DNA of 64,000 nt, taken from contig NW_027191455.1 of the NCBI RefSeq assembly GCF_011745625.1, positions 868,001 to 932,000 on the forward strand. Direction: 5' to 3'. The notes under the pieces are model-generated. The model made no database searches. It was not told the origin of the DNA and saw nothing but the letters and a program-made list of their open reading frames with translations. Below, one piece after another: positions 47,680 to 60,940 of the stretch (positions are counted from its first letter, which is position 1; each line of letters starts with the position of its first letter). Position numbers and translations under genes: made by a program. The DNA is from Cladosporium halotolerans. Taxonomy: Eukaryota.

Positions 47680-48996
47680 ATGGCTTCGGAGAAGATGATG
47701 AACGCCGTGCGCTTCCACGGCCGCGAGGACCTGCGCTTCGAGCGCGTGCCGGAGCCCGAGTGTGGGAAGGGCCAGGTCAAGGTCCGGCCTGCGTGGTGCG
47801 GGATTTGTGGAAGGGTAAGCTCGGCGCCTTTGGGTTGAGATGACAGTGTGTCAGAAACTAATCTAAGCACGCAGTTGGTCTAGAGCCCTGGTACAGATGA
47901 AACGACGCAACATGCTAACTCCCCTCCGGCGACCTGCACGAGTTCCTAGGCGGACCTTCGCTCTGTCCGACCACGCCGCACCCGGTTACGGGAGAGACTA
48001 TTCCGTTGACGTTCGGACATGAGTTCAGCGGTACGATTGAGGAGGTGGGCGAGGGCGTGTCGGAGAGCGTTGCGGTTGGAGACAGGGTGTGCGTACAGCC
48101 GATCATATACGATGGGACGTGCGGATCTTGCGAGGAGGGACTGATCAACTGCTGTGATAACAATGGATTTGTGGGGTTGAGTGGTAAGTGATGTCGTGTG
48201 CGACAGACTGAGCTTTGCTGACACTGGGTAGGCTGGGGCGGAGGGCTTTCTGAGAAGGTCGTCGTGCCGGAGTATTGCATTGTCAAGATCCCAGACAACG
48301 TGCCTCTGGACGTTGCAGGTGAGCTCTTCGACATAACCCATCACTTACCTAGTCGACTCTAACCTGACTCCTTCAGCGCTCGTCGAACCGCTCTCAGTCG
48401 GCTGGCACGCAGTCAGCATCTCCCCCTTCCAGGTCGGCGACTCAGCACTTGTTCTAGGAGGCGGCCCCATCGGCCTCTCTGTCATCCAAGCGCTCAAGGC
48501 GCGCGGCTGCGACAAGATCATCGTGTCCGAGGTATCATCCATGCGCAAGCAGTACGCGGCAGACTTCGGCGCACACCACGTGCTGGACCCGACGAAAGAC
48601 GATATCGTAGCCAAGTGCCGCGAGCTGTGTGACGGCAAAGGCGCACACGTCTGCTTCGACGCCGCGGGCGTGCAGGCTGCTCTCGACCAGGCCGTCAAAG
48701 CCGTGCGAGCTCGCGGCACGGTCGTGAACATCGCGATCTGGGAGAAGCCGTTCACGCTCCAGCCAAACGACATGATCTTCCGCGAGCGCAAGTGGGTGGC
48801 TACTGCAACGTACCAGAAGGGCGACTTTCAGGAGGTGCTGGCTGCCATCTCCTCGGGCGGCATGGAGAATGTGGAGAACATGATCACCAAGAAGATCGGC
48901 CTTGACGAGGTCGTCGAGCAGGGATTCAGGGCGCTGGTCAAGGACAAGGACAGGCAGGTCAAGATCCTGGTGCGCGCAGGGTCTGGAGAGACGTGA
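47680..48996 (+). CDS. Zinc-dependent MDR dehydrogenase, (2R,3R)-butanediol dehydrogenase-like
   Basis: Motifs WCGICG(S)DLHEF, GHEFSG, ALVEPLSVGWHAV, GGGPIG, FDAAG and VKILV. Complex first intron 47814-47929; further introns 48184-48231 and 48319-48376. Confidence 0.88.
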
Positions 48997-49821: not shown

Positions 49822-50827
49822 ATGGGTCTCATCAAGGGTGGTTTCTTGCGCCTGCTGCAGACCGCGCTCTACGCCCTCTGCTTCTGCTGCGCCGGCATCG
49901 TGCTCGGTATGTTGACCATTCGCGCGAGCGCAAAAGTTCACGCCAGCTGACAATCCGCCAGGCATCTACTCCTACTTCCTGAGCGTGCGCGCCGACCGCA
50001 ACCAGGGCATCCCCACCTGGCAAAAGGCCGTCGAGGGCATCTCGGGTGTTGCTGTCCTGTACACCATCGCCGCCACTGTCCTCACCTGCTGCCTTGGCGG
50101 CATCAGCTTCTTCGCCTTCACTGCCATTGTTCTCGACATCCTTTTCGTCGGCGGCTTCATCGCCCTCGCCGTTCTGACCCGCGATGGCGCCAGCTCTTGC
50201 ACTGGAACCGTCGACACCCCTCTTGGCACCGGCAACGCCAACGCCAACCGCTCTGATGGCTTCGGTTCTGGTGGTATCGGAACTGGCTCTGGCGAGAACC
50301 TGACCTACTCGGTTTCTCCTCGTACTGCCTGCCGCCTGAACACCGCCGCCTTCGCCGTGAGCATCATTGCTGCTTTCCTGTTCGTCATCACCGCTCTCAT
50401 GCAGATTGCTCTTGTCCGCAAGCACAAGAAGGAGAAGCGTTTCGGCCCCAGCCCCGCCAACAACTACACCTCTGGCCCTGGCAAGAAGCGCGCATTCTGG
50501 AACCGCAAGAAGAACACCACTGCGGACAGGGACACTGAGCTTGGCGCCACTGGCACTGCGGTTGGCGCTGGTGGTCTCGCCGCTGGCCACCCTGACACTC
50601 GTCCTTCTCACGAGACCGGCTACACTGGTAGCACCGTCGCCGCTTCCAACGGCAATGCGTATGACAAGGTTGATGGCGCCAACGGTTACAACACCACGCA
50701 CCAGAACCACGCGCCGCACGGCGCTCACGGAGGCTACTACACTCAGCCCCAGGGCACCGGTGTCAACCCGTATGGTTACGACAACACCCAACCTACCTAC
50801 ACCACCGGCACTGCCACCAACTACTAG
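49822..50827 (+). CDS. MARVEL-domain membrane protein with Gly/Asn/Tyr-rich cytosolic tail
   Basis: Intron 49907-49961. Four hydrophobic helices, with motifs AVEGISG, DILFVGGFIA and KRFGPSPANNYTSG. Confidence 0.82.
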
Positions 50828-51866
50828 GCTCTCGAGCCCTCACGCAGTTAGTCTAATGACACTGGCCAGCTGCTTTTCCTTTCCGTTTGTTTCTATGCAC
50901 ATATTTACGAGCGAGATACCACTATAATGCCACCTGTAATGATGGGACTAGCTGCCGAAGCAGCAAGGAGTCGGGAAAAGGAGGTGGATTGAAAGCGCAC
51001 GCGTTTCCAAGACTGTTTGGATGCAGATTCGTTACACTACGGCAGTACGCCACTAATAATACCAACGAAATTCTTCTAAAACATCGCCTGTGATTTTTGA
51101 AGTCCCATTTGAATACTACATTATCTCTAAGAGAGGGTTACAGTATGAATTCACTCCTATCATGTGTACCGGGTTCAAAGCTGGTGCTCTTCCGCGCGCC
51201 TCCCTTTGTCCGGCCGCCTGACGCATCACACCATCACTGCTTTGTTGCCGACGGTCAGCCACATACGTTCCCCGCTATCACGTGCCTTCTTTCCCTGTGA
51301 TATTGGCCTGCAAGGATATGGGATGCAGTGGACGTGTTGAGCACATCGAGACGCGCATGTCAATATTATTGCATGACTGCGCAAGTCATGTATGGGTCTG
51401 CGCGCGGTTTATGCCACATCTCAAATCACACTGCACATATGCCCACCCTTGCATGTTCTCATGAAAGTTTGCGCATTGGCAAGGATGGCTTGTCGAACGC
51501 GTTAAAAGTCTGCCGACGTGAGATGACCTCTGCCCGAAGCCGTGGCTGCTTGGTGAACTGCTGCTAGCAACCGGCAGGGACGTCATTGTTGATGTCTTGG
51601 CGTGGAGGGCAGCAGCGAGACCATGGCAAGTGGCCGATGGAGACACTGCTGAGAGAACATCACCTGCACCACCTTTACTTCTTTCGCTCTTTCAATCCCA
51701 ATTTCAACGAGCAAGATATCGCCAGTTGACCCGATACACAGAGTACGATTCGTCTGCCCCGTCCCTGCATTCCCGTCGCCCTGCTGACCGCCCGGAATGT
51801 TCACAGGTCAACCCCTCCAACCACACACCTCCATATACGGCCCGCCCACGCGAGAAGGTCGTCGCG

Positions 51867-59753: not shown

Positions 59754-60940
59754 ATGGCCACTCAGAATGTCACTCTAGTTGAGAAGCTCACTCTGCTACC
59801 GCATGTTGCTGTTGGATTGTCTCTCGGATTCCTCCGTCTGGCGACTCGACCATTGACCAGCGATGTCAAACCACCGACCGCCTTCCAGGACTTCGCGTAT
59901 GCAGTGGCCCGCTATGTCCTCTCAAACGTGACCATTCCTCATGAGAAGTGGCTGGCGCCTCCGACCGAGACTAACTATCTCGACTTCGCTCGCGCAAAGA
60001 ACTTCCAGCCCGACACAGCCGTCCTTCCTAGTGGTGTCAAAGTTCACTGGATCGGCAACAAGAGCGCCGAGAAGGTGTTCCTCTACTTTCACGGCGGCGG
60101 ATATGTGAACTCCATTTCGCCCGCGCATCTGGCGTGGCTCTTTGACCTCGAGGCTGAGCTATCCAAGACGAAGAAGATTGCTGTCGCAGTCCTCGGATAT
60201 ACCTGTGCCCCGGAGGGTCAATATCCTCTGCAGCTCAAGCAAGCCGCTGAAAGCCTTGTTTGGATGTTGCAGACGGAGGGCAAGAAGCCCGAAGATGTTG
60301 GTGGCATTTGGACACCTCATTCAGGATCCTTGACAGCTAACATGCTACCCTATAGATCTTCATCGGCGGCGATTCAGCGGGTGGCAATCTAGCGCTGGCT
60401 CTATTCTCCCACATCCTGCACCCTCATCCTAGCCTTGGAGAGGACCTTCGTATCAAGCTGCCCGGACCCCTGGCAGGAGCGGTCATCACGTCGCCATGGG
60501 TGAAATTTGCCACAGACGACGATTCCGTCAAACGCAACGAAGGAAGCGATTTTGTCTGTGAGACGGCCGCCAACCGGTGGTCTTCTGCTTTCATGGGTAG
60601 GTTGATTTTTTTTCTTGCGTACAGAATATTCTATTGACAACTACAAATAGGATCAGCACCCGACGACAACTACAACCAGCCGATCCTGGCGCCTGCAGAT
60701 TGGTTTTCCGGCCTCGACAAGGTGATCAAGGGCATGTTTGTCTGGGGTGGCGAGTCGGAGGTTCTCATCGACAGCATCGATGCCATCGTCAAGAAGCTCA
60801 AGGCCAGCTACCCTCAGACTGAGTACGTCAAGACCAAGGGTGGCGCTCACGTGGGCTGGCTTGCTCATAAGATGTTCGGCTACAAGGGCAAGGAAGAGAG
60901 CACGGAAGCTATTGAGAGCTGGATGACTGCACGGCTCTGA
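59754..60940 (+). CDS. Alpha/beta hydrolase, hormone-sensitive-lipase/Say1-like esterase
   Basis: HGGG oxyanion motif and GDSAG nucleophile elbow, with WGGESE and GAH. Introns 60297-60355 and 60597-60650. Ends in -ARL. Confidence 0.9.

Follow-up and report, generated by a model that had tools for sequence, protein, structure and literature searches.

A probable spliceosomal twin intron with a non-AG external 3' end in a dehydrogenase gene of a Cladosporiaceae-like Dothideomycete

A gene for an (R,R)-butanediol/sorbitol-type dehydrogenase, set in a Dothideomycete close to Cladosporiaceae, probably carries a [D1,2]-type spliceosomal twin intron (stwintron) whose external 3' end is not AG. The nested intron would occupy positions 47814-47929 of the window, that is, of the whole stretch of 64,000 nucleotides that was analyzed. 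The dehydrogenase gene itself extends over 47680-48996 on the + strand and has four exons. Its predicted features, including those of the nested intron, are as follows:

47680..47813, + strand: exon 1, with the ATG at 47680 and ..TGT GGA AG at its end, where AG is bases 1-2 of a Ser codon
47814, + strand: external-donor G, base 1 of the donor once the internal intron is gone and the G by which a [D1,2] twin intron is recognized
47815..47874, + strand: internal intron, 60 nt, with donor GTAAGC at 47815-47820, ACTAAT at 47857-47862 and CAG at 47872-47874
47875..47929, + strand: remainder of the external intron (56 nt including G47814), with donor remainder TTGGT at 47875-47879 and GCTAAC at 47914-47919
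47930..48183, + strand: exon 2, whose initial C completes the Ser codon (AG|C), followed by Asp-Leu-His-Glu-Phe-Leu-Gly-Gly; ADH_N domain
47941..47942, + strand: first AG past the outer branch A, within the His-Glu codons; acceptor of an all-canonical 128-nt intron, 47815-47942
48184..48231, + strand: intron 2, 48 nt, canonical GTAAGT..CTGAC..TAG
48232..48318, + strand: exon 3
48319..48376, + strand: intron 3, 58 nt, canonical GTGAGC..CAG
48377..48996, + strand: exon 4, with the stop TGA at 48994-48996; ADH_zinc_N domain

As judged from its sequence, the gene product is a zinc-dependent medium-chain dehydrogenase of the butanediol/sorbitol/threonine dehydrogenase group. Pfam places ADH_N (PF08240, E 6e-15) in exon 2 and ADH_zinc_N (PF00107, E 3e-32) in exon 4, and the translation of the window contains Cys/His zinc-ligand motifs, namely GHE and a four-Cys cluster. 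The full 364-aa model shares 88% protein identity with the transcript-derived proteins P0221 and P0123 and with P0213, a public model from Cladosporium inversicolor, and exon 4 shares 83% identity with models labeled at source as Rachicladosporium sp. and Oleoguttula sp.; the protein collection searched did not contain the window's own protein. The best solved relative of P0221 is the (R,R)-butanediol dehydrogenase 6ie0 (E 1e-90), which has an identical WCGICGSDLHE stretch and is a bacterial enzyme, the assignment of the fungal protein being one of sequence likeness.

Within the nested intron, the internal branch A is 47861, 13 nt before the end of the internal intron. Once the internal intron is excised, G47814 would abut TTGGT and the two would form the donor GTTGGT. 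The external intron that begins there has its branch A at 47918 and a pyrimidine tract at 47920-47927, and it ends in CGG (47927-47929), after which exon 2 resumes with C GAC CTG CAC GAG from 47930. Between the outer branch site and the Asp codon the window contains no AG. Thus, the window has the G before the donor, the complete internal U2 intron, and the new canonical donor (GTTGGT) of a [D1,2] stwintron, but at the external end, where a canonical AG (HAG) is expected, it has CGG. The original prediction of a stwintron at this place gave coordinates, motifs, and lengths (60 nt for the inner and 56 nt for the outer intron) that all match the sequence. Its outer intron of 56 nt with GCTAAC stands, yet it overlooked that this intron ends in CGG rather than AG. 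The [D1,2] classification likewise holds for the layout, which recurs in 13 related loci, and, in a relative, for the type of junction, which is found in the contig L001 (below), whereas the external intron is non-canonical.

Four splice models were compared on the window sequence, and only the removal of 47814-47929 gives a protein, of 364 aa, with the full Ser-Asp-Leu-His-Glu motif. Removing 47815-47942, with every signal canonical, stays in frame and gives 360 aa, although the product reads CGICGR|FLGG and Ser-Asp-Leu-His-Glu is gone; the prediction that single-step splicing from GTAAGC would not restore the motif is borne out. Joining the outer donor to AG47942 causes a frameshift with a stop at residue 47, and removing the inner intron alone causes a frameshift with a stop at residue 48. 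All-canonical nested schemes, including one with an inner intron of the [A2,3] type placed at the acceptor, were also rejected. No nested scheme makes the 3' end canonical, because the bases preceding the last G are never AG: they are CG in the window, CT or TT in related loci that end in TG, and AA or GA in those that end in AG. Other forms of splicing do not fit either. Introns of the U12 type, handled by the minor spliceosome, have donors of the (A/G)TATCCTT type, which neither GTAAGC nor GTTGGT resembles, and unconventional splicing of the Ire1/HAC1 type was rejected on a mismatch of the 5' side to its consensus.

The mature junction is seen in one relative, represented by the genomic locus L018, whose intron ends in TG. 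The assembled contig L001 (1773 nt) is intron-less and transcript-like, and it equals L018 minus three introns, in four blocks. Exons 1-3 are 100% identical between the two and exon 4 is 99.7% identical (3 mismatches in 1129 nt), and introns 2 and 3 of L018, both removed in L001, are plain GT..AG introns. At the first junction, GGAAG-G-GTGCGT....CCTG-TGATC in L018 becomes GGAAG|TGATC in L001. This junction implies that the extra G is removed and that a non-AG 3' end (..CCTG) is used in nature. The excised piece starts with G-GT and ends with ..CTG or, shifted by one base, starts with GG-GT and ends with ..CT. Whichever L001 is, an assembled transcript or a processed copy, splicing produced its junctions. 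The restored motif CGICGSDLHE also occurs in full-length contiguous proteins encoded on short contigs, namely P0221 (6 contigs, none longer than 1562 nt, with 100% identity to exon 1 of L018), P0219 (9 contigs), and P0123 (4 contigs). The cluster of P0123 further includes proteins of a neighboring gene that is unrelated (P0210, P0214-P0218, and P0220), an oddity of the collection's clustering and not of biology.

Public gene models at this junction agree with the earlier remark that stwintrons are usually mis-annotated. The Cladosporium inversicolor model P0213 reads CGICGR|FLGG, i.e., it follows the all-canonical path, and at the first-intron junction the models from Rachicladosporium and Oleoguttula are garbled. 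One Rachicladosporium sp. model, P0003, reads ..CGICGR-CVEPLRG-NFYE-GTIPT-ICPTT, with NFYE in place of DLHE. The changes of D to N, L to F, and H to Y are each consistent with one first-position transition, and P0003 could represent a copy that has been damaged, or its model could have taken in the wrong stretch of sequence. A contiguous ORF in a relative, P0224 (86 aa on an 877-nt contig), passes from CGICGR directly to DRVVVQPIIYDG, a stretch about 50 residues downstream, and then into intron 2; this may reflect an aberrant splice or a deletion. Eight public or automatic orthologue models (P0019, P0025, P0027, P0034, P0039, P0054, P0067, and P0042) from other Dothideomycetes and lichen fungi, lineages that apparently have only a plain phase-1 intron, retain or skip sequence at the same junction. 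Annotation thus runs into trouble at the CGICG(S/T)|DLHE junction quite generally.

To place the intron in a wider context, metagenome contigs were scanned with exon 2, and the 80 loci returned were sorted by their structure at the intron site. Of the 80, 44 carry a plain phase-1 intron within the Asp codon (Ser/Thr codon, G|GT..YAG|AY), 21 have no intron there, and 12 have the complete layout of the window. Of the remaining loci, L004 has the 3' part only, its contig being cut on the 5' side, the intron of L028 lies further downstream, and L029 is without the 5' side. Inspection of the same position in orthologues, as had been proposed, thus yields 13 loci that share the architecture GGAAG | G | GTxxGx..branch..YAG | TNNGY..CTRAC + 10 nt ..NG | Y-GAY-CTN-CAY-GAG. 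Ten more ORF fragments on genomic contigs read CGICGR-V.. (AGG-GTN) and have the same 5' layout. A contig of the intermediate that lacks the inner intron only was not among the 80 loci.

Signals were measured in 12 loci and the window (13 sequences), with L004 added for the 3' end only (14 sequences). In the 12 loci and the window, the internal intron has the donor GTxxG(T/C), and CTRAY lies 8-15 nt ahead of its YAG. The newly formed donor is G+T(T/A)(T/C/G)G(T/C) in 13 of 13, occurring as GTTTGT, GTTCGT, GTATGC, or GTTGGT; that of L002 was scored at the homologous AACAG|TTTGT site of the alignment and not at the later site picked by the script. From the A of the outer CTRAC branch site to the final base removed, the distance is exactly 11 nt in all 13, and all 14 sequences have G as the last base of the intron. 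The penultimate base is A in three loci (AAG in L002 and L004, GAG in L003), T in ten (CTG or TTG ends in L005, L018, L006, and L008-L014), and G in the window alone (1 of 14). Where the end is not AG, the nearest AG downstream ends 24 nt past the branch A.

An alignment of 12 related regions (A1) has, as invariant intron columns, G|GT..G at the 5' end, the inner branch CT.A, the inner AG, the T and G of the new donor, the outer branch CT.AC, and the last G. Five further intron positions are invariant and the remaining intron is poorly conserved. The hallmark G (47814 in the window) is present in 12 of 12 regions. By sequence comparison, this conserved pattern exceeds chance. In the same regions every difference in the Asp-Leu-His-Glu codons is synonymous and at the third position, and the base ahead of them is always C or T, matching the Ser codon AGY. 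Given that these codons vary only synonymously across the clade, they are therefore translated. An origin of the nested intron by tandem duplication was considered and rejected, the similarity between inner and outer introns being inconsistent (z -2.2 to +2.4 over 11 loci).

In a 24-row tree of coding sequences, a single clade with support of 99/99 unites the window with the 14 stwintron-type rows, namely L001 and the 13 genomic loci; within it, the window is sister to the others (84/82). The nearest outgroups (L025, L007, L015, and L017) have no intron at the site. Because the three AG loci (L002, L003, and L004) form one nested group (97/94), the tree rows favor a non-AG end as the more parsimonious ancestor. 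Against this weighs P0225, a read-through ORF from a relative not placed on the tree, which implies ..CAR|C-GAC; therefore, canonical ends exist in the clade. The GG end of the window could be a decayed state. The plain phase-1 intron of the 44 loci is in the same gene and motif as the stwintron, and it differs in lying 2 nt downstream of the stwintron site and in being single and fully canonical. The two may be related by descent through a shift, or by loss and regain (compare PMC5587772). In L022, L023, L028, and L033, a second short intron is found a few codons downstream, after His-Glu-Tyr or Leu-Gly, and intron positions within that 30-nt stretch vary among Dothideomycetes.

Elsewhere in the window, the hexamer GTTGGT recurs as a plausible donor at 60297, as the original prediction had pointed out: 60297-60302 opens an interval of 59 nt (60297-60355) of the form GTTGGT..GCTAAC..TAG, which joins two open frames in phase (..KKPED | IFIGGDSAGGNLA..). 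It resembles an ordinary intron, here within a gene for a GDSAGG-type alpha/beta-hydrolase, with the same unusual donor hexamer as the external donor described above. Downstream of the dehydrogenase gene, at about 49830-50830 (+), is a gene for a membrane-like protein that starts with MGLIKGGFLRLLQ. The same gene is in the same place in L018 and L005 (4551-5239), where P0214, P0218, and P0220 match at 98-100%; thus, the neighborhood is syntenic across these fungi.

Several other explanations of the region have to be weighed against the stwintron. It is very unlikely that the ordinary 128-nt intron GT47815..CTAAC..AG47942, with the protein CGICGR|FLGG, is the real or main splice. Its signals are all canonical, AG47942 is the first AG past the branch site, the reading frame stays open, and the public Cladosporium inversicolor model was built in this way. 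Such a splice would nevertheless delete invariant residues: the pattern W[CV]GICG[ST]DLHE is found in 88 of 232 fetched sequences, and also in the bacterial 6ie0. The synonymous variation of the Asp-Leu-His-Glu codons and the presence of the motif in transcript-like contigs and proteins of relatives also argue against it, and the conserved inner YAG|TNNGY island would be left unexplained. Known [D1,2] stwintrons can be misspliced in one step from the internal donor, as the relevant part of PMC12403724 describes, and so the 128-nt splice may occur as a by-product. We also regard it as quite unlikely that the window copy is broken, with an unspliceable GG end in a young pseudogene or in a gene that yields aberrant mRNA only. 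The GG end is unique to the window, and non-AG sites are normally poor substrates, according to the account of them in PMC10711555. Against this, the gene is otherwise intact, being free of stops, 88% identical to relatives, and canonical in introns 2 and 3, and relatives with an equally non-canonical TG end yield correct mRNA.

That all 116 nt are excised in a single non-canonical GG..GG reaction, with no nested intron, is highly improbable. The mature junction alone would look the same after one step or two, and the 80 loci included no contig of the intermediate; yet both ends would be non-canonical in a single reaction, and the conserved internal branch motif, YAG, and T..G(T/C) would be left without a role. 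Since the matter hinges on one base, and a G at 47928 is found in the window record only, an assembly or sequencing error that conceals a true AG or TG end might be suspected. This is hardly to be expected in a gene with no other apparent error, and a non-AG end is in any case the rule of the clade, with TG in 10 of the 13 related loci.

If the region is indeed a stwintron, the internal 60-nt intron (GTAAGC..ACTAAT..CAG) would be excised first, and the G47814 and TTGGT thereby joined would form the donor GTTGGT. The external 56-nt intron would then be excised through A47918 at a 3' site 11 nt downstream that is CGG and not YAG. The resulting junction, GGAAG|CGACC, would restore Cys-Gly-Ser-Asp-Leu-His-Glu. 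In every member of the clade this two-step order is suggested by conserved signals alone, and the GG end of the window would presumably work like the TG end of its relatives. The 3' site is probably set by the fixed short distance from the branch point together with the pyrimidine tract and the conserved last G, with AG not required. With its fixed 11-nt spacing from the branch A, the pyrimidine tract ahead of it, and its apparent role as the productive site across the clade, it differs from non-AG sites in yeast and humans.

A possible contribution of base pairing to the choice of this site comes from GGAAGGGT (47809-47816), which comprises the end of exon 1 and the 5' splice site and faces the pyrimidine tract at 47920-47927. 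The complementarity of GGAAGGGT to the eight bases that precede the final two of the intron is 8/8 in L018, an exact reverse complement, and 6/8 in the window. Across 12 rows there are 5-8 Watson-Crick pairs, plus G-U pairs, and 85% of cells pair in register compared with 50-69% when the strands are slid. Covariation is not possible in this helix because its 5' side never varies, and the helix is a lead only. Strong RNA structure was not found: shuffled versions fold as well as the 116 nt of the window (z +1.38), and the consensus structure has a weak energy of -3.4 kcal/mol. We raise, as a tentative and rather unlikely proposal, an AG-independent ligation of the external intron in this clade, in which the fixed 11-nt distance from the branch A, the last G, and the helix between GGAAGGGT and the tract would define the 3' site. 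The helix would then hold the odd 3' site beside the exon end, in a manner that can be likened to the exon-binding sites of group II introns and to the near-terminal stems that PMC12403724 describes in [D1,2] stwintrons of Xylariales. If true, the major spliceosome would here join exons independently of AG, in a case that is natural and conserved.

The window shares with the known [D1,2] stwintrons of Pezizomycotina, as portrayed in the stwintron passages of PMC5587772, PMC9024468, and PMC12403724, a G before a canonical donor and an internal U2 intron with its own branch site and acceptor. Both also have a donor newly made by internal removal and a second branch site, and both are mishandled by gene predictors. 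The differences are the external intron, which ends in GG here and in TG in most relatives as opposed to HAG in the known cases, and the host gene, here a dehydrogenase of a Cladosporiaceae-like Dothideomycete. The stwintron definition given in PMC5587772 has a canonical external intron, and the window, whose external intron ends in GG, thus departs from it. Genome searches for stwintrons, as outlined in PMC9024468, demanded 5'-GGY..AG-3' and so could not have found a non-AG type. In the stwintron papers searched, neither Cladosporium nor, in the passages considered, a non-AG external acceptor was found, and among the matches listed no paper paired stwintrons with Cladosporium, Rachicladosporium, or butanediol dehydrogenase. 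Against these papers, what is new is a non-AG external 3' end on an already known intron type, the [D1,2] twin intron.

Non-AG 3' sites have precedents outside stwintrons. Spliceosomes of Saccharomyces cerevisiae can ligate CG, GG, and UG ("BG") 3' sites, which, in the portion of PMC10711555 concerned with them, mostly lie near the branch point, ahead of the normal AG and after U-rich tracts, and are used chiefly without Prp18. The site in the window is likewise near the branch point and upstream of a normal AG, keeps the last G, and is preceded by a pyrimidine tract. The yeast sites are minor and mainly unmasked by loss of Prp18, whereas here the non-AG site apparently predominates, within the gene of a conserved enzyme and across a clade. 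In humans, TG alternative 3' splice sites of U2 introns have been verified in 36 genes, by the summary in PMC2374985. Both there and in the TG relatives described here, the major spliceosome uses TG as a 3' splice site; the human sites are alternative, whereas here no AG is available at the productive junction.

The finding corrects a gene model, in that the automatic models of relatives delete or garble five catalytic-site residues, and it would extend [D1,2] twin introns to a Cladosporiaceae-like lineage. It also indicates that motif searches demanding a terminal AG miss some twin introns. Ultimately, these fungi would provide a natural, evolutionarily kept non-AG (TG/GG) 3' splice site of the major spliceosome, located at a fixed distance from the branch point, and this may bear on how the second splicing step picks its site.
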